A stretch of 64,000 nt of DNA, from positions 78,248 to 142,247 of the forward strand of contig JBFMAF010000041.1 of assembly GCA_040755995.1 (NCBI GenBank), read 5' to 3'. The notes beneath the pieces were generated by a model. That model saw only the letters and a program-made list of their open reading frames with translations, did no database searches and was not told where the DNA came from. This DNA comes from Acidobacteriota bacterium (lineage in GTDB: Bacteria > Acidobacteriota > CAIWXX01). This document shows positions 5,760 to 19,261 of the stretch, piece after piece; position 1 is the stretch's first letter; every line of letters starts with the position of its first letter. Made by a program: the position numbers and the translations under genes.

Positions 5760-6230
5760 CTAGCAGATAATCTTCCAGGTGAACTTGCTCCAATAGGAGT
5801 ATATGTAGTAGGTCGCCGGACCCCAGTAGGTGTAGTCCCAGTAGTCCTCGGCGTACAGCTTGATGTAGCGCCCGTTGGTGTAGCGGCCCACGTAATACTT
5901 CCCGTTGCGGGTCACGTACCCCTTCCACCTGTTGTTGACGGCGATATAGATCCTGCCGCCGTAGGCGCACGCAAAGGCGCGGACGTTCCAGTACAGGCTG
6001 AACTTGCCCTGCGGCGAGCTCTCGATTGCCCTCTCTTCGGCTGCCGTGAGCGGCTTCAGTTCGGGCAGCGTGGCAAAGTCGGGCGGTTCGATCGGCCGGC
6101 CCGAACGGTCCGCGATCGCGTTCGCCTTGCTCGTCATCGTCTTGGTTGGCGCGGCTGCGGTAGCCGGAAGCGTCAGCATGGCTGCCGCCACCAGCATCAC
6201 TGTCGCGAGTGTGAAGAACCTCCGAGTCAT
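5760..6230 (-). CDS. Secreted Tyr/Trp-rich protein, paralog A (156 aa)
   Basis: AAGGAGG RBS, signal peptide MTRRFF...ATA; 23 differences from paralog B by manual count. Confidence 0.88.
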   Translation of the reverse strand: MTRRFFTLATVMLVAAAMLTLPATAAAPTKTMTSKANAIADRSGRPIEPPDFATLPELKPLTAAEERAIESSPQGKFSLYWNVRAFACAYGGRIYIAVNNRWKGYVTRNGKYYVGRYTNGRYIKLYAEDYWDYTYWGPATYYIYSYWSKFTWKIIC

Positions 6231-6463
6231 CTTGCCTCCTTGTGCAGACGTTGTTGTTGCTATGCCCCCAAAAATCAACCCAAGTCTAAGCGGCAGGCAC
6301 GCGACTACTTACCGACTCACGCGCCACTACGAACCCGATCTGCTCTACTGAAATATTGCGGGGCATGAGATTCGGCTCCCCCGAATCTCTCGAGATTCGC
6401 TACACGTTCACCAATCTCTCGAGCCCACTCAGGGGCCACCTACCCTCCTATCATCCTGTGTAC

Positions 6464-6583: not shown

Positions 6584-7054
6584 CTAGCAGATGATCTTCC
6601 AGGTGAACGTGCTCCAGTAGGTGTAGACGTAGTACGTCGACGGACCCCAGTAGGTGTAGTCCCAGTAGTCCTCGGCGTACAGCTTGTAGTACTTTCCGTT
6701 GGTGAACTGGCCTACGTAGTACTTACCGTTGCGCGTTACGTAGCCCTTCCACTTGTTGTTGACGGCGATGTAGATCCGGCCGCCGTAAGCGCACGCGAAG
6801 GCCCTGACGTTCCAATACAGCCGGAACTTGCCCTGCGGCGAGTTCTCCAGCGCCCGCTCCTCGGCCGGGCTAAGTGGTTTCAACTCGGGCAAGTTGGCGT
6901 AATCAGGCGGCTCGGCCGGGCGTCCCGACCGGTCGGCCACGGCGTTTGCCTTCGTCGTCATCACCTTGGTTGGTGCCGCTGCGGTCGCGGGCAGCGTCAG
7001 CATGGCTGCCGCCACGAGCATCACCGTCGCGAATACGAACAATCTCCGAGTCAT
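6584..7054 (-). CDS. Secreted Tyr/Trp-rich protein, paralog B (156 aa)
   Basis: AGGAGG RBS; same length and architecture as paralog A. Confidence 0.88.
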   Translation of the reverse strand: MTRRLFVFATVMLVAAAMLTLPATAAAPTKVMTTKANAVADRSGRPAEPPDYANLPELKPLSPAEERALENSPQGKFRLYWNVRAFACAYGGRIYIAVNNKWKGYVTRNGKYYVGQFTNGKYYKLYAEDYWDYTYWGPSTYYVYTYWSTFTWKIIC

Positions 7055-8911: not shown

Positions 8912-10222
8912 ATGAGGAAGTTCCACATCGAGACGTTCGGATGCCAGATGAACGTCCATGACAGTGAGAAGATCGCCGGTCTGTTGTCGCTCGCCGGATA
9001 CGGACGCGCGGAGAGCGAGGAACAGGCCACGCTGCACGTCGTGAACACCTGCTCCGTGCGGGAGAAAGCGGAGAGCAAGCTTCACAGCTACCTGGGCAGA
9101 CTGGGCAGGCGCAAGAGGGAAGGGGACGACCTTGTGATCGGCGTGATGGGCTGTGTGGCCCAGCAGGAGGGGCGCGATCTGCTCTGTCAAGCCCCGTATG
9201 TCGATTTCGTACTGGGCACCCATCAGTTGTCCGCCGTCGGCGATGTCATGCGCCAGATCGAGGAGACGCGTGCGCCTGTGGTGCAGACAGCCATGGTTGC
9301 CGAGCTCGACGAGCTGGCCCCCTCGGTGGCGGAACGTGCCCACCCGGGACGCGCCTACGTGACGATCATGGAGGGGTGCAACAAGTTCTGCACCTTTTGC
9401 GTCGTCCCCTACACCAGAGGACGCGAACGGTGTCGATCTTTCGAGAGCATCCTGGCCGAGATCGAATACCTCGCGGGCTCTGGCGCGCGTGAGATCCAAC
9501 TGCTCGGGCAAAACGTCAATTGCTGGCGCGACGGCAATCGCCGGTTCATCGATCTCCTTCGGGCGGTCGAGGTTACCCAAGTCGAATGGCTTAGGTTCAT
9601 CACCTCGCATCCCGCGCACTTCGGAGAGGAGCTGGCCGAGTGGATGGCCCAGTCCACGAAGCTCTGCCCGCAGCTCCATCTGCCGCTGCAATCCGGGAGC
9701 GATGAGGTGCTGTCCAGGATGCGCCGTGAATACAACTGCGACGAGTTTCGACGGAAGATCTCGGATCTCCGCATGCGCATACCATCCATCGCGCTCTCAA
9801 CGGACATCATCGCCGGGTTTCCGGGCGAGACAGACGAGGACTTCGCAAGGACGATGGAGGTTTGCCGGGAGATCCGCTTCGACTCGATGTTCTCCTTTGT
9901 CTACTCGCCCCGGCGCTACACCGCCGCCGGGCGCTGGACCGATGACGTGCCGGCTGAAATCAAGCTGCTCAGACTGCGATCACTACAGGAAATGCAGAGG
10001 CAGATTCAAACGGAGACGAACCGTGCTCTCGTTCAGCGCGAGATGAGAGTGCTGGTGGACGGCAGGAGCAAGAAGAGCCCTCATGTATACTGCGGCCGCA
10101 GCGCGTGCAATCGAGTTGTGAATTTCGTTGCACCGGCCCCACCCAGGCCGGGGGATTTCGCGCGGGTGCGCATCACCAACTCGGGCCCGAACAGCTTGTT
10201 CGGTGAAGCGATGGGCAGTTGA
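8912..10222 (+). CDS. miaB: tRNA-2-methylthio-N6-dimethylallyladenosine synthase
   Basis: TFGCQMNVHDSE, NTCSVREKAE, GCNKFCTFCVVPYTRG, C-terminal TRAM domain. Confidence 0.96.
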   Translation: MRKFHIETFGCQMNVHDSEKIAGLLSLAGYGRAESEEQATLHVVNTCSVREKAESKLHSYLGRLGRRKREGDDLVIGVMGCVAQQEGRDLLCQAPYVDFVLGTHQLSAVGDVMRQIEETRAPVVQTAMVAELDELAPSVAERAHPGRAYVTIMEGCNKFCTFCVVPYTRGRERCRSFESILAEIEYLAGSGAREIQLLGQNVNCWRDGNRRFIDLLRAVEVTQVEWLRFITSHPAHFGEELAEWMAQSTKLCPQLHLPLQSGSDEVLSRMRREYNCDEFRRKISDLRMRIPSIALSTDIIAGFPGETDEDFARTMEVCREIRFDSMFSFVYSPRRYTAAGRWTDDVPAEIKLLRLRSLQEMQRQIQTETNRALVQREMRVLVDGRSKKSPHVYCGRSACNRVVNFVAPAPPRPGDFARVRITNSGPNSLFGEAMGS

Positions 10223-10386
10223 CAGTTGTCAGTTGACAGCGGGCGATGGTCGGCCGAGAGGCAGCGGCAGTCGAGTGACGGCTCCCTTTCGCTTGACTCG
10301 GCCGGGTTGTAGAGCCTGCGGCTCCTCCGCGGCCGACAACTGCTTCTCCGGCAACTGACAACCGACAACTACCGACTGCTACTGCT
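10216..10386. repeat. Inverted heptamer arrays (CAGTTGN)n ... (NCAACTG)n after miaB
   Basis: CAGTTGA CAGTTGT CAGTTGA overlaps the stop codon; GCAACTG ACAACCG ACAACTA from 10351, then a T tract. Confidence 0.7.
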
Positions 10387-10596: not shown

Positions 10597-11883
10597 ATGG
10601 AGAAGAAGCCGTTCAACGCTTTCGAAATGGCCCAGCAGCAGTTCGACGCCGTGGCCGAGAAGCTCGGTCTCGACGCGCCCACCAAGGATCTCCTGCGGAA
10701 TCCGCTACGCGAGTACCACTTCATGATCCCAGTCCGCATGGACGATGGATCGTACCAGGTTTTCAAAGGATTCCGCGTCCAGCACAGCGACGCGAGAGGG
10801 CCGTGCAAGGGCGGCATCCGGTTCCATCCACATGAGACCGTAGACACAGTCCGGGCATTGGCCATGTGGATGACCTGGAAATGCGCCGTGGTCGATATCC
10901 CGCTGGGAGGCGGCAAGGGTGGAGTCATCTGCGATCCGCACAACCTGAGCGAGCGCGAGCAGGAGGGGATCTGCCGTGGCTGGGTGCGCCAGGTCGCACT
11001 GAACGTCGGCCCCGTGCAGGACGTCCCGGCCCCCGACGTGATGACGCATGGCCAGCACATGTTGTGGATGCTCGATGAGTTCGAGAGAATCCGCGGCGGG
11101 CGCTACCCGGGGTTCATAACGGGCAAGCCGGTCGGAATCGGCGGATCGCTCGGCCGCACCGAAGCCACCGGCTACGGCGTGATGTACACTGTGCGCGAGG
11201 CCATGGAGGAGCTTGGGATCGATATCAGCAAGACCGCGGCCGCTTTCCAGGGTTTCGGCAACGTCTCCCAGTACGCGGTGCGCCTGTACAAGCAGTACGG
11301 GGGGCGCGTCGTATGCGTGTCGTGCTGGGACCAGAAAGACCAGACTTCCTACACGTTCCGCCGTGAGTCGGGTGTGGATCCGGACGAGCTGGTCTCGATC
11401 ACGGACAAGTTCGGCTCGATCGACAAGGAGAAGGCGAGGGCCGGTGGCTATGAGATACTCCCCGGCGATGCGTGGATCGAGCAGGAGGTCGACCTCCTGG
11501 TTCCGGCTGCGCTCGAGAACCAGGTGACCGGAGCCCTCGTTGGCCGCATCCACAAGCGCGTGAAGATGATCGCGGAAGGCGCTAACGGCCCGACGACCCC
11601 GGACGCGGACACTGTCATCAAAGAACGCGGCATCTTCCTGATCCCCGACTTCCTGTGCAACGCAGGCGGAGTCACCTGCAGCTATTTCGAGCAGGTCCAG
11701 TGCAACATGAATCACTACTGGACTGTCGGCGAGGTGCTCGGCCAGCTGGATTCCAAGATGACCAGTGCGTTCAAGGCGGTTTCGGAAATGGCGCGTACGA
11801 AGAACGTGTACATGCGCGACGCAGCCTACATGATCTCGATCTCGCGCGTGGCCGAGGCGTGCCACCTGCGCGGTTGGGTGTAG
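10597..11883 (+). CDS. gdhA: Glu/Leu/Phe/Val dehydrogenase, probably glutamate dehydrogenase
   Basis: KGGIRFHP, MTWKCAVVDIPLGGGKGG, DVPAPD, GRTEATGYG, QGFGNV, EGANGPTT; AAGGAG RBS. Confidence 0.93.
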   Translation: MEKKPFNAFEMAQQQFDAVAEKLGLDAPTKDLLRNPLREYHFMIPVRMDDGSYQVFKGFRVQHSDARGPCKGGIRFHPHETVDTVRALAMWMTWKCAVVDIPLGGGKGGVICDPHNLSEREQEGICRGWVRQVALNVGPVQDVPAPDVMTHGQHMLWMLDEFERIRGGRYPGFITGKPVGIGGSLGRTEATGYGVMYTVREAMEELGIDISKTAAAFQGFGNVSQYAVRLYKQYGGRVVCVSCWDQKDQTSYTFRRESGVDPDELVSITDKFGSIDKEKARAGGYEILPGDAWIEQEVDLLVPAALENQVTGALVGRIHKRVKMIAEGANGPTTPDADTVIKERGIFLIPDFLCNAGGVTCSYFEQVQCNMNHYWTVGEVLGQLDSKMTSAFKAVSEMARTKNVYMRDAAYMISISRVAEACHLRGWV

Positions 11884-12089
11884 ACTCCGTGAGGGGGCGC
11901 CTTGAAGCGGGCGCGCCCTTCACCGATAATTGAGTGCGATGACACCGGGGCGGCGCCGGATACCTGGGCCGGCGCACGCCGGCGGTGCTCAGCCGTCTTG
12001 CCCGCTCGACCTCGCGGGCCATGGCAGTTCGATCTGGTCCTTCGCCGGCTCGCGAGAACGGGTGACCGCATGAGGAAGGGAGATCGGAG

Positions 12090-14843
12090 ATGGAGACACT
12101 CATCGATCAGGATGCGTTCCCCAGTGGCCCGCTGCGAGAGCGAGTCAAGGAGCTCAAATGCCTCCACGGAGTGATCGAGCTGACCGAGCGAACGGAGCTC
12201 TCCCGCGAGCAGATCCTTCAGGGCATCGTCGATCTCATCCCTGAGGGGTGGCAGTATCCGGAGGTATGCCGGGCCCGCGTGACGCTCCGTGATGTCTCCT
12301 TCAACACCGCCGGCTTCACCCTCACCCCCTGGCTCCAGCGCGCCTCGCTCAAGGTCAACGGCACGCCGATCGGCACGCTCGAGGTCTGCTATCTCGAGAA
12401 CCGGTCTGCCCATCGAGACGACCCGTTTCTCCTGGAAGAGAAGAAGCTGATCGAGCTCATCGGCAAGAAGCTCAGCCGCCGCATCGAGGAATGGGAGATC
12501 GGGCCCGCGCCGCGCCCTCCGAGCCAGAAGGAGTTGGCCGCGCTCAGGCCCGAGTGGCAGATCGTGCTCGATCTTCTGAAAGAAACCGACAGTGTTCTGT
12601 ACAAGCGCATCCTCCGCAGGCTCATGAACCACCTGGACCGCAACGGCGTGCCGGGCGTCCAGGGCCTCGTGCTCCAGTTCAACCCCGCCTACCAGGAAGA
12701 TGATTCCGGAGCGCGAGGCGACAACCAGCCTTTGCCGAAACGCGATGTGCTGACGCTGGAGAAGGTGTTCGATGAGGCCATCTGGATCGCCTCAATTGCG
12801 ATGCCCGACGACGAGATGTCGGCGCTGATCAAGAAATGGATGCGACAGGACAAGTTCGCGTACCTCATCTTTGCAACCGACAAGCGCGACATTTCGAGAA
12901 CAGAAATATCCGACATCCTTGGCCGGTTCTGCCGTGCCACGCGGCCCGATGAACAGTCTCTGTCGTCCTCGGGAGACCTCAATGTCCGCGTCGCCCTCAT
13001 ACGGCGATTTCTGAGCGAGCGGCTCTCGTTCATCCGGATCGCCAAGGAGTACATGACGATCCACGACTTCGGACGGATCTTGAGCCAGGTCCTCGGACCC
13101 ACACAGGGCACCGGCAAGCTCGGCGGCAAGGCCGCCGGGCTGGTGCTCGCCGAGCATGTGCTTCGCGACCGGGTCAGGGGCAACCATATCGCAGGGAAGT
13201 TCCGGGTCCCTCAGACACGGTTCATTACTTCGGACGGACTGATGGATTTCATACACAACAACTACCTCGAGGATATGCTCGGCTTCAAGTTCTCGGGCAT
13301 CGAGGAAATCCGGCACAATTTCCCGTATATCGAACAGCTGTTCAAACACTCCCATCCGTCCCCTGAGATCGTCAGCCAGCTGAAAGTTGCGATCGAGGAG
13401 CTGGGCGAGGGTCCTCTGATTGTGCGGTCCTCCAGCCTGCTGGAGGACAGCGAGGGCTCGGCGTTCTCCGGCAAGTACCGCAGCCTGTTCCTGCCCAACA
13501 TCGGAACTCGCGACGAACGCCTGGCGGCGCTCACCGATGCCATCGCGGAGGTGTACGCGTCGATTTTCGGTCCCGACGCCATCCAGTATCGCGCCGAGCG
13601 CGGTCTGTTGGACTACATGGAGGAGATGGGCATTCTGATCCAGCGGGTTGTCGGAAGGCGAGTTGGCAAGTACTTCTTCCCGGCGTTCGCCGGTGTGTCC
13701 TTCAGCACGAATGAATTCCGCTGGTCGCCGCGTGTGCGCCGCGAAGACGGCGTGCTTAGAATCGTCACCGGACTGGGGACTCGCGCTGTTGACAGGGTTG
13801 GCGACGACTACCCGGTGCTGATCAGCCCGGGGCAGCCGGGCATCCGCGTGAACGTCACGCCCCAGCAGGTCGTGCACTACGCGCAGAAGAACATCGACCT
13901 GATCAATCTCGAGAGCGGCCGCTTCGAGACGCACAGCATCGATGAGATTCTCAAGGAGGTCGGCGACCAGTTCCCGTGTTGGGATTGGGTCATGTCGGTC
14001 TATGACGGCACAACCGTGCGGAAGCCCAGCCGCGCGATGGTGCATCCGGGACGCGATCCGATGGTGGTGACGTTCGCCGGGCTGATCGAGAACACTCCGT
14101 TTCTGAAGCAGCTGAAGGAGATCATGCGAATCCTGCGGGAGGCCATGGGATACCCTGTGGACGTGGAATTCGCGCACGACGGCGCCGATCTCCACATCCT
14201 GCAGTGCAGGCCGCAGAGCCGGGCCGAGGATGAACAGCGAGTGACCATCCCGCAGTGGATTCCGGAAAAACGGAAGCTATTCTCCGCGCACAAGTACGTC
14301 ACGAACGCGCATGTCAGGGATATCAAGACGATTGTGTACGTCGACGCTGCCAGGTACGCACAGCTCGCGTCGCTCGGCGACATGGTGGCTGTCGGCGATG
14401 CTGTGAGCCGGCTCAACTCCATGCTCCCCCGCCGCTCGTTCATCCTCATCGGGCCGGGGCGCTGGGGCAGCCGCGGGGACATCCGGCTTGGAGTCCGCGT
14501 CACCTACTCGGACATCAACAACGCCGCCATGCTCATCGAGGTCGCCCGAAAGGTTGGCAACTACGTCCCGGATCTGTCGTTCGGCACTCACTTCTTTCAA
14601 GATCTGGTGGAAGCGCGCATCCGGTATCTGGCCTTGTACCCGGATGAAGAAGGGGCCGTTTTCGCCGAGCAGTTCTTCCATAAGGCGCCCAGCGTCCTGA
14701 CAGAGCTGTTGCCCGAATACGAGTACCTGGCGGATGTCGTGCGAGTCATCGACGTGCCGGCAGCCACCGGCGGTTGCGAACTGAACGTGGTGATGGACGG
14801 CGAGGGTGAACAGGCGCTGGCCTATCTGGTCGAGAAACACTGA
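12090..14843 (+). CDS. PEP/pyruvate-binding-domain (PPDK_N) family protein with an N-terminal GAF-like domain
   Basis: GKLGGKAAGL, PLIVRSSSLLED..FSGKY, GLGTRAV, PVDVEFA, LQCRPQ; C-terminal GPGRWGS...SFGTHFFQDL; N-terminal RERVKELKCL...GWQYPE. Confidence 0.88.
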   Translation: METLIDQDAFPSGPLRERVKELKCLHGVIELTERTELSREQILQGIVDLIPEGWQYPEVCRARVTLRDVSFNTAGFTLTPWLQRASLKVNGTPIGTLEVCYLENRSAHRDDPFLLEEKKLIELIGKKLSRRIEEWEIGPAPRPPSQKELAALRPEWQIVLDLLKETDSVLYKRILRRLMNHLDRNGVPGVQGLVLQFNPAYQEDDSGARGDNQPLPKRDVLTLEKVFDEAIWIASIAMPDDEMSALIKKWMRQDKFAYLIFATDKRDISRTEISDILGRFCRATRPDEQSLSSSGDLNVRVALIRRFLSERLSFIRIAKEYMTIHDFGRILSQVLGPTQGTGKLGGKAAGLVLAEHVLRDRVRGNHIAGKFRVPQTRFITSDGLMDFIHNNYLEDMLGFKFSGIEEIRHNFPYIEQLFKHSHPSPEIVSQLKVAIEELGEGPLIVRSSSLLEDSEGSAFSGKYRSLFLPNIGTRDERLAALTDAIAEVYASIFGPDAIQYRAERGLLDYMEEMGILIQRVVGRRVGKYFFPAFAGVSFSTNEFRWSPRVRREDGVLRIVTGLGTRAVDRVGDDYPVLISPGQPGIRVNVTPQQVVHYAQKNIDLINLESGRFETHSIDEILKEVGDQFPCWDWVMSVYDGTTVRKPSRAMVHPGRDPMVVTFAGLIENTPFLKQLKEIMRILREAMGYPVDVEFAHDGADLHILQCRPQSRAEDEQRVTIPQWIPEKRKLFSAHKYVTNAHVRDIKTIVYVDAARYAQLASLGDMVAVGDAVSRLNSMLPRRSFILIGPGRWGSRGDIRLGVRVTYSDINNAAMLIEVARKVGNYVPDLSFGTHFFQDLVEARIRYLALYPDEEGAVFAEQFFHKAPSVLTELLPEYEYLADVVRVIDVPAATGGCELNVVMDGEGEQALAYLVEKH

Positions 14844-14871
14844 CGACGCTTTACCACCTTCATTTCTCAAC

Positions 14872-14913
14872 GTGATCGTGAACGTGGACGTGAATGTCGA
14901 CGTCGACGTTCAC
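14872..14913. repeat. Palindromic hexamer array (GTGAAC type)
   Basis: GTGATC GTGAAC GTGGAC GTGAAT GTCGAC GTCGAC GTTCAC. Confidence 0.75.
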
Positions 14914-14957
14914 GGCCCCGATGATGGATCCGCAGGACACCGGTCCCACCGCTGTAC

Positions 14958-14986
14958 TTGACACTCCGGGGGGGTCAACCTATATT
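14958..14986 (+). promoter_or_regulatory. Sigma-70 promoter
   Basis: TTGACA-17-TATATT. Confidence 0.7.
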
Positions 14987-15011
14987 TGGTACATCAGGTT
15001 GGGAGAGCGAC

Positions 15012-15497
15012 ATGGAAATCGAGATGAAGATCAAGGGCCTCATGATAGATCCGATCACAAACATGCCCATCGTGATCCTGCGCGAAAAGGAAGGCAACAA
15101 GGTCCTCCCTATCTGGGTGGGGATTTTCGAGGCCAATGCGATTGCTCTTCAGATCGAGAACATCCAGACACCGAGACCGATGACCCACGACCTTCTGAAG
15201 AACGTCATCGTCGACATGAAGGCGTCCGTCAGCAAGATAGTAGTGAATCAGCTGCGGGAGAACACATTCTACGCGCTGATCTTTCTGGAATACAACGGCG
15301 AGCTCATTCGGATCGACGCTCGCCCATCCGATGCCATCGCTCTCGCGCTGCGCACTGAATCTCCGATATACGTCGAGGACGAGGTCATCGCAACTGCCAA
15401 GACCGCGGACATGGACCAGGAATCAAGCGAGACGGAACGCCTGCAGAAGTGGCTTGAGAACCTGGACCCGCAGGAGATGGGCAAGTACAAGATGTAG
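15012..15497 (+). CDS. Bifunctional nuclease family protein (DUF151)
   Basis: LPIWVGIFEANAI, PRPMTHDL, IDARPSDAIALALR. Confidence 0.93.
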   Translation: MEIEMKIKGLMIDPITNMPIVILREKEGNKVLPIWVGIFEANAIALQIENIQTPRPMTHDLLKNVIVDMKASVSKIVVNQLRENTFYALIFLEYNGELIRIDARPSDAIALALRTESPIYVEDEVIATAKTADMDQESSETERLQKWLENLDPQEMGKYKM

Positions 15498-17353: not shown

Positions 17354-19261
17354 ATGGGATTGCTCGGCAAGATCTTTGGAGCAAACAAGAAGACCACACG
17401 GCCGGCAGCGCCGCGGAAGGCTCAGCCCCTGAGCCTGTCGCGCTTGTCCCCCTCGGAGGCGCGGCTGCAGGAGCTCCTGGAGAAGACTCCGAAGGCTCGC
17501 GCCAGAGCAGCCAAGAGCCCGTCGCCATCGGCGCCGGCGGCGCCTCCTCCGGCGCAAGCCGCGCACTCTGCGATCTCAGCTCTCTTCACCGACAGCTCCA
17601 CGGACCACCTCAGCCGCTACGTGGGTGCCGGCGCGGTCTTCGAGAGAGAGCTGCGCGAGATCCAGGCAAATCTGATCGAGCTGGATGATCGCGAGCTCGA
17701 CGGCCGCATCACCCAGGTCATCGAGCGCCTGCAGGCATGCTGTGGCCCCGGAGTTCCAAATGGCGAACAGATCCCGGCGGATGCGCGCGGCGACCTGTAC
17801 GACCTCTTGCTCGATTCGCTGTCGATCGCCAAGTTCCCGAAGTCCCGAGCCTCGCTGAGGCCGCTGCTGGAGGTCGACCTGAGACAGGCTGTCCACGAGA
17901 CGCAGGGCCAGCTCTCCAAGAAGATTCTCTCGCACCTCAATTGCAGCAACATCCTCGAGATCGCGAAGCTGCGCGAGCTGCAACGGTTCTTTCGGCAAAA
18001 CCCGTCGCTCTCTGAACATGTGGCGATCGACAAGGTCTGGGAGTACCAGCTCACGCCGACGCAGTACAAGTTCTTCCAGATAGTCGGGGAGAAGTATCCG
18101 AGTCTTCGCGGGCTGCCCGAGATATTCCAGACGATGAGCGACGCCCAGATCTACTCGTTGACGCAGCACGTGTATGGGCGCCCCGAGGCTGAGTTCCGGG
18201 CGAATCTTGCCAAGATGCGGATCCTCCGCGACCGGCGGTCTCCTGAAGCCGAGCTCCAGAGGATCTTCACCGAACAGTTCGAGCGGTTCGTAGTCGGGCT
18301 GCCGGGGCCGCTGCAAGAGCGGCTGGCGGCGCTGCCGAGAGAGCCCCACGAGAGCTGGACGCGCGCCATTGCAGGAGTGATCGTCGAGCACATCGACAGC
18401 GTGGCCAGGCAGTCCGACGTAATCGATGCCAGCGCGCTGGAGAAGGATCGCTGGGCCGTCGCTCAGCTGGTCGAGAAGGGCATGTTCAATGCGGTAGCCG
18501 AGCTGCTCGAGAAGTTCACGACACGTGCCGCACAGCCCAGGGAGCTCGTCTTCGAGCTCCAGAAACGGAACACGCGCTACTTCTGCAGGCACGCACCTTA
18601 CTGGGTTGCGATCGTCGAGGTGATCGCGCGCAACCGCGACCAGGTGATCATCGACGGCAACCTGAGCGGCGAGGGGCCGCTTGGCGGCGTGCCGGTCGAA
18701 AGGGAGCGAATCAACGTATCCGAGAGAATCCGACTGAGCCTCAAGGACAGGGATTTCTCCTCGGTGAGCGACAGCGAGATCGCGGAGAAGACCGAACGCG
18801 GCGTTCAGATGCTCGGAAAGAAACTCTCACAGACCGGGAACTTCCTGAGTCTGTTCTACGAGACTCTCTACAGCAGCAAACCCCCGTCCATAGATGAGAT
18901 TGAGTATCTCCCACGATCGATCAGGGCGATTCAGACGGAGGGGCTCGAGGAAACGAATGCCGCGTTGGCCACGGATGGAAAGGAGCTGCGTCCGACCGAG
19001 GAAGAGATCTTCTCGACGCTCAACAACCTCGAACCTGTCCTTGATCTCTACCCGGCGCTTCGGGAGAAGGGCGGTCTTGATGCATATATCTACCAGAGGT
19101 ACGAGGCGACGAAGAAGGAACAGGTCACGCCGGCAGAGGCCGTCGCCAGGCGGCGCGAAGTTGCGGAGCGGCTGAACATTGCGATCAGCCAGGTGCTGAT
19201 GCCGTGGCTGAAGCGGTGTCGAGAGAACCTCGAGAGTGCGCTGGCCGCGGGGGAGACTTAG
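17354..19261 (+). CDS. Hypothetical, mostly helical protein (635 aa)
   Basis: Long ORF with protein-like composition; N-terminal MGLLGKIFG and Pro/Ala linker; no family recognised. Confidence 0.8.
   Translation: MGLLGKIFGANKKTTRPAAPRKAQPLSLSRLSPSEARLQELLEKTPKARARAAKSPSPSAPAAPPPAQAAHSAISALFTDSSTDHLSRYVGAGAVFERELREIQANLIELDDRELDGRITQVIERLQACCGPGVPNGEQIPADARGDLYDLLLDSLSIAKFPKSRASLRPLLEVDLRQAVHETQGQLSKKILSHLNCSNILEIAKLRELQRFFRQNPSLSEHVAIDKVWEYQLTPTQYKFFQIVGEKYPSLRGLPEIFQTMSDAQIYSLTQHVYGRPEAEFRANLAKMRILRDRRSPEAELQRIFTEQFERFVVGLPGPLQERLAALPREPHESWTRAIAGVIVEHIDSVARQSDVIDASALEKDRWAVAQLVEKGMFNAVAELLEKFTTRAAQPRELVFELQKRNTRYFCRHAPYWVAIVEVIARNRDQVIIDGNLSGEGPLGGVPVERERINVSERIRLSLKDRDFSSVSDSEIAEKTERGVQMLGKKLSQTGNFLSLFYETLYSSKPPSIDEIEYLPRSIRAIQTEGLEETNAALATDGKELRPTEEEIFSTLNNLEPVLDLYPALREKGGLDAYIYQRYEATKKEQVTPAEAVARRREVAERLNIAISQVLMPWLKRCRENLESALAAGET

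Follow-up and report, generated by a model that had tools for sequence, protein, structure and literature searches.

The gene for a glutamate dehydrogenase (GDH) and the dikinase-like gene that accompanies it form a module that is real, widespread and undescribed. We analyzed this module in a 64,000 nucleotide stretch of an Acidobacteriota bacterium genome (contig JBFMAF010000041.1, positions 78,248 to 142,247, hereafter the window), where the gene for the GDH P0002 (428 amino acids (aa), 10597..11883, + strand, Pfam ELFV_dehydrog(_N)) is followed by the gene for P0001 (917 aa, 12090..14843, + strand), a dikinase-like protein with GAF, helical, ATP-grasp and His-swivel regions. Judged from its sequence P0001 is likely a GAF-bearing dikinase without a built-in acceptor domain, and the linkage of its family to gdh is tight and clade-specific. 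In the working model, to which we give about even chances, P0001 would be a GAF-gated dikinase in which ATP phosphorylates His834 and the swivel domain passes the phosphate to, or docks on, the cognate GDH. Literature searches on the GDH-linked dikinase family found no paper, and no kinase system dedicated to GDH is known to us from bacteria.

Linkage of the dikinase family to cognate GDH clades

The first-pass annotation of this DNA had stated that the family often sits next to gdh and a GTDB neighborhood survey bore this out. The homologs of P0001 at E<=0.001 numbered 8000 or more, and loci were picked on the dikinase alone, using the best 80 of 601. GDH was present in 65 of these 80 loci and in 50 of the 53 that had at least 5 kb of upstream sequence, and in 48 of the 53 the P0002 clade lay upstream in the same orientation. 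None of the other neighbor families occurred in more than 10 of the 80 loci, which came from more than ten bacterial phyla and Thermoplasmata. The reverse test gave the same picture. Within the window's phylum the His domain was found in 144 of 301 sampled genomes, and in a comparison by eye 69 of the 70 genomes of this sample with the P0002 clade had it, the exception being G225, whose sequence was incomplete in the data used. Among the best 29 other GDH loci a family gene lay within 1.5 kb in 22.

A further 40 loci were hand-picked from 150 listed matches for long contigs and varied genera before the neighbors were viewed. P0001-type members adjoined the P0002 clade in 22 of 24 loci with both misses at a contig edge, and receiver-fused members adjoined an NADP-type GDH, ~30% identical to P0002, in 16 of 16. 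The two subfamilies carry unrelated N-terminal inputs (hhalign Prob 0.2 for the P0001 helical region against the N-half of the receiver-fused proteins) and pair with two distinct GDH clades. Bacteroidales-like metagenome loci with 1.8 kb of upstream sequence had an adjacent gdh in 50 of 55 cases; the adjacency was also present in named Parabacteroides and Phocaeicola records and absent in one Prevotella record, and the Bacteroidales receiver-fused member sits between or beside two gdh genes. Comparison of GDH and partner trees gave a rho of 0.625 against a permutation maximum of 0.17 (n=82) and 21 of 38 supported splits were shared, with kinship inflating both the correlation and the agreement.

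The P0002 clade, a dedicated partner-linked clade, was monophyletic against three outgroups. P0002 retains all eight catalytic and pocket residues checked (K71, K95, K107, A145, D147, R187, V359 and S362), whose roles are those described in the GDH literature. They make up the glutamate-specific set, with three lysines, an Arg, an Asp, a Ser and the Ala/Val pocket. Residues particular to the GDHs of this clade (H154, the W244-Y252 insert and C361) are candidate sites for an action of the partner. Its best NCBIfam model was GdhA_Arch, scoring below that model's cut-off, and its closest PDB sequence was 1euz. K107 was lost in 6 of 85 clade GDHs and in one diverged copy (L063), all full length, and these genes precede short-B plus A cassettes in whose proteins the His motif and most of the ATP-grasp motifs are retained. 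An intact clade GDH copy was present elsewhere in 4 of 5 tested genomes with a K107-less GDH, and in the window's genome. Because the dead GDHs stay beside intact partners the gdh-dikinase partnership can outlast GDH catalysis, and this persistence suggests that the two interact as proteins and are not merely steps of one pathway. Two more altered-pocket GDH-fold genes were observed after the dikinase gene in genomes of family f19 (L129:9709-12316 and L130:9781-12316).

A second cassette on contig C31 of the window's genome (L001:5772-13760) contains a divergent NADP-type gdh, a pseudo-GDH (K95E, K107N) and two dikinase-like genes, one encoding a 586-aa short member without an N-terminal input and the other a ~1,060-aa paralog with a Pol-beta nucleotidyltransferase tail. 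Such tails were found in 69 A-type open reading frames (ORFs) of the examined loci. Short and long members were also fused in proteins of ~1,500-1,650 aa with two ATP-grasp domains (P0123, P0124, P0126 and P0275-P0289), suggesting that they form a heterodimer where they are separate genes. P0001 is the tail-less, single-partner form. All versions of the family share only the ATP-grasp and the His domain, so the acceptor site must come in trans.

Domain organization of P0001 and the predicted swivel histidine

The anatomy proposed in the first pass, a GAF-like segment, a helical region, PPDK_N and a short His domain with no phosphoenolpyruvate (PEP)/pyruvate barrel, agreed with Pfam and with structure models. 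The sole Pfam match in P0001 was PPDK_N (residues 343-722, 13116..14255, + strand, E 3e-51). The N-terminal segment was found to have a GAF fold, forming a compact domain at residues ~10-142 (12117..12515, + strand) of a GAF subtype that Pfam misses in P0001. This compact GAF module recurs in a hybrid histidine kinase of the window's genome (G000, contig C37, L002:4212-7025), where it follows the first receiver domain. Residues ~146-331 (12525..13082, + strand) were all helical by DSSP of the model and are a candidate GDH-docking domain.

Assignment of the ATP-grasp was based on Pfam, conservation and the shared motifs GGK347, R446SS, E693F and Q705xR707, which also occur in other PPDK_N proteins of the same genome. 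Across 133 homologs K347 was conserved in 132, R446 in 133, E693 in 132, Q705 in 131 and R707 in 130. K347, R446 and E693 match by motif the ATP-grasp residues K22, R117 and E297 given for RPH in PMC4844700, and the R446 region was also aligned. The PEP/pyruvate barrel had no Pfam match in P0001 nor is there space for one in the ORF, and a scan of 45 proteins, of which 44 belong to the family, did not find it. No small-molecule-binding domain of the RPH/PigC type lies between the ATP-grasp and the swivel, as the His domain directly follows PPDK_N. P0001 was rejected as a PEP synthase, PPDK or RPH family member. It is without the barrel of the first two and far under the cut-offs, with NCBIfam PEP-synthase, RPH and PigC models scoring 20-55 bits against cut-offs of ~600-1700.

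The His domain (residues 715-917, 14232..14840, + strand) is predicted to adopt a swivelling beta/beta/alpha fold with the inserted loops GPGRWGS (14451-14471) and SFGTHFF. His834 of SFGTHFF (14589..14591, + strand) is the predicted phosphoacceptor from conservation and the model, and its conservation, on which the first-pass reading had leaned, held up (129/133 homologs and 231/236 non-redundant domains). In the confident His-domain model His834 opens a helix between two strands. A fold comparison against 48,161 chains returned phosphohistidine swivels as the top two matches with the RPH swivel first. Most of the other top matches share the same swivelling fold, and many non-catalytic domains of this fold matched at similar Z. 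The register from His834 to the next strand was gap-free and the same as in the genome's ten true swivels. Of the superposition on the swivel His suggested in the first pass, the model showed the same topological position and register. PF00391 gave ten matches over the genome and none in the P0001 His domain, and profile tests of this domain were negative or weak. We predict from the model that the His domain is a divergent swivel not recognizable by sequence and, by analogy with RPH, PPDK and VadK, that His834 would be the phosphoacceptor in a reaction converting ATP to AMP + Pi.

One ESM Atlas cluster, with 344 members of ~218 aa, comprises nothing but the His domain, as stand-alone genes or fragments. 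The window's genome is unusually rich in dikinase-like proteins, encoding ten with a swivel domain and many with PPDK_N.

Proposed control of GDH and alternative explanations

In the model we favor a signal at the GAF domain would gate ATP-dependent phosphorylation of His834 in P0001. The beta-phosphate of ATP would be transferred to His834, giving AMP + Pi, and the phospho-swivel would pass the phosphate to, or dock on, the neighboring GDH, switching its activity. Purely genomic observations point to GDH as the partner and the GAF domain as the input. The sensor-gated dikinase acting on GDH or a metabolite that was first proposed stood as to anatomy, GAF fold, predicted swivel-type fold and linkage, and the refuting outcomes that this analysis could check did not occur; we infer the phospho-His, the acceptor and the direction of control. 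The family as a whole may consist of swivel kinases derived from PPDK. Their inputs (GAF, tandem receivers) and outputs (an added nucleotidyltransferase, heterodimeric or fused B-A pairs) would be exchangeable, and each kinase would control its cognate GDH clade by His phosphorylation, sometimes via dead GDH subunits. This generalization is tentative and on balance doubtful. Gene(s) downstream of gdhA in Bacteroides thetaiotaomicron reportedly affect GDH activity in trans, going by the title of a 1996 paper by Baggio and Morrison, and the idea that this trans-acting gene is a member of the GDH-linked dikinase family is an unverified lead.

VadK (Rv1127c) is a barrel-less PPDK-derived kinase that undergoes autophosphorylation at a His and associates with enzymes of metabolism (PMC13400623). 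Like P0001 it combines ATP-binding and His domains without the PEP barrel, and it is proposed to regulate the central-metabolic enzymes that it binds. VadK is however a truncated PPDK whose His was located by overlay on PPDK structures, while the P0001 His domain is unrecognizable by sequence; P0001 adds GAF and helical domains and has GDH as its genomic partner, whereas the VadK partners are methylcitrate-cycle enzymes. In RPH and the two-component HpeHI (PMC4844700; PMC12167813) the ATP-grasp residues are those of P0001 and a swivel His lies in the C-terminal part. They possess a dedicated small-molecule-binding domain, whereas the P0001 family lacks a common one and bears sensor domains. 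PEP synthase and PPDK share the PPDK_N domain with P0001, have the swivel-type fold that is predicted for it, and differ in the barrel and the family scores. In the T. thermophilus GdhA/GdhB/APRTh complex the partners of GDH control it, among them a GDH subunit without catalytic activity; unlike in the model for P0001, this control works allosterically (Leu, AMP) and involves no dikinase (PMC9570180).

Control could also run in reverse, with GDH or a dead paralog sensing glutamate, 2-oxoglutarate or NAD(H) and gating the dikinase, which would deliver its phospho-His to another protein. The K107-less full-length GDHs kept ahead of intact short-B plus A cassettes in genomes with an intact clade copy elsewhere would fit this, as would the inactive regulatory subunit GdhA of T. 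thermophilus (PMC9570180). We consider reverse control unlikely since the dikinases already have their own GAF or receiver inputs, no third gene was conserved as a target in the surveyed neighborhoods and a dead GDH might just as well belong to a regulated hetero-hexamer as one of its subunits. We are equally doubtful that P0001 is a small-molecule dikinase of glutamate-family metabolism, which would phosphorylate or activate a product or substrate of GDH and leave GDH itself unregulated. RPH and HpeHI do act on small molecules with the same pair of domains (PMC4844700; PMC12167813) and the invariant GPGRWGS loop together with E817, near the His domain, might make up an acceptor site, but retention of the dikinase next to dead GDHs speaks against a simple step in a pathway, as do the sensor fusions, the Pol-beta nucleotidyltransferase tail of many paralogs and the lack of a substrate-binding domain common to all forms.

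A role of the His domain other than phosphocarrier is very unlikely; P0001 would then be an ATP-grasp ligase or a sensor of ATP/AMP, with His834 serving structurally or as a general base. The missing sequence-level swivel signal and the non-catalytic domains of similar Z would allow it, but a PPDK_N-type ATP-grasp directly before a domain of predicted swivel fold whose near-invariant His starts a helix is the arrangement of RPH and VadK. An ordinary PEP synthase or PPDK with its barrel in trans, the outcome set against the first-pass reading and the label of source records that name P0001 homologs 'pyruvate, water dikinase', is highly improbable given NCBIfam PEP synthase scores of 46-55 bits against cut-offs of 598-883, no barrel in P0001 or among conserved neighbors, and a separate 930-aa swivel plus barrel PPDK-type protein in the genome.

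Genomic setting and significance

The genes for P0002 and P0001 are separated by a 206 bp spacer (11884..12089, + strand) in which a consensus scan gave no terminator-like site on the + strand and a weak promoter-like site at 11902-11930 (9/12). The flanks are a miaB-like gene on the left (8912..10222, + strand, Pfam UPF0004/Radical_SAM/TRAM) and bfn on the right (15009..15497, + strand, Pfam BFN_dom), with a sigma70-like site upstream of bfn at 14958-14986 (11/12, consensus scan). Because 14 of 19 relatives, both same-family genomes among them, have miaB directly beside bfn, gdh and the dikinase gene appear to have come into this interval together as a single unit. Short repeat tracts lie on both sides of the cassette, GTGAAC/GTGGAC/GTCGAC hexamers downstream (14865-14915) and ACTGACAAC-like repeats upstream (10350-10385), and both have weak copies elsewhere in the genome. 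The window also contains a tandem pair of highly similar small ORFs (5760-6278 and 6584-7054, both - strand) with signal-peptide-like N-termini and aromatic-rich C-termini, one of which was scanned and had no Pfam match, and a 635-aa ORF downstream of parA/parB (17354-19261, + strand) without a Pfam match.

GDH is a junction enzyme between carbon metabolism and nitrogen metabolism, and the His domain occurs in the window's phylum, many other phyla, archaea and gut Bacteroidales. As the family is routinely annotated as PEP synthase, metabolic models credit organisms with a reaction that the protein probably cannot do. With His834 and the cognate GDH clade identified the hypothesis is testable with two purified proteins. 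If it is true the family would do for GDH what GlnE/GlnD do in controlling glutamine synthetase, in organisms ranging from gut Bacteroidales to archaea, and may include the unexplained factor reported to act on GDH in trans in B. thetaiotaomicron.
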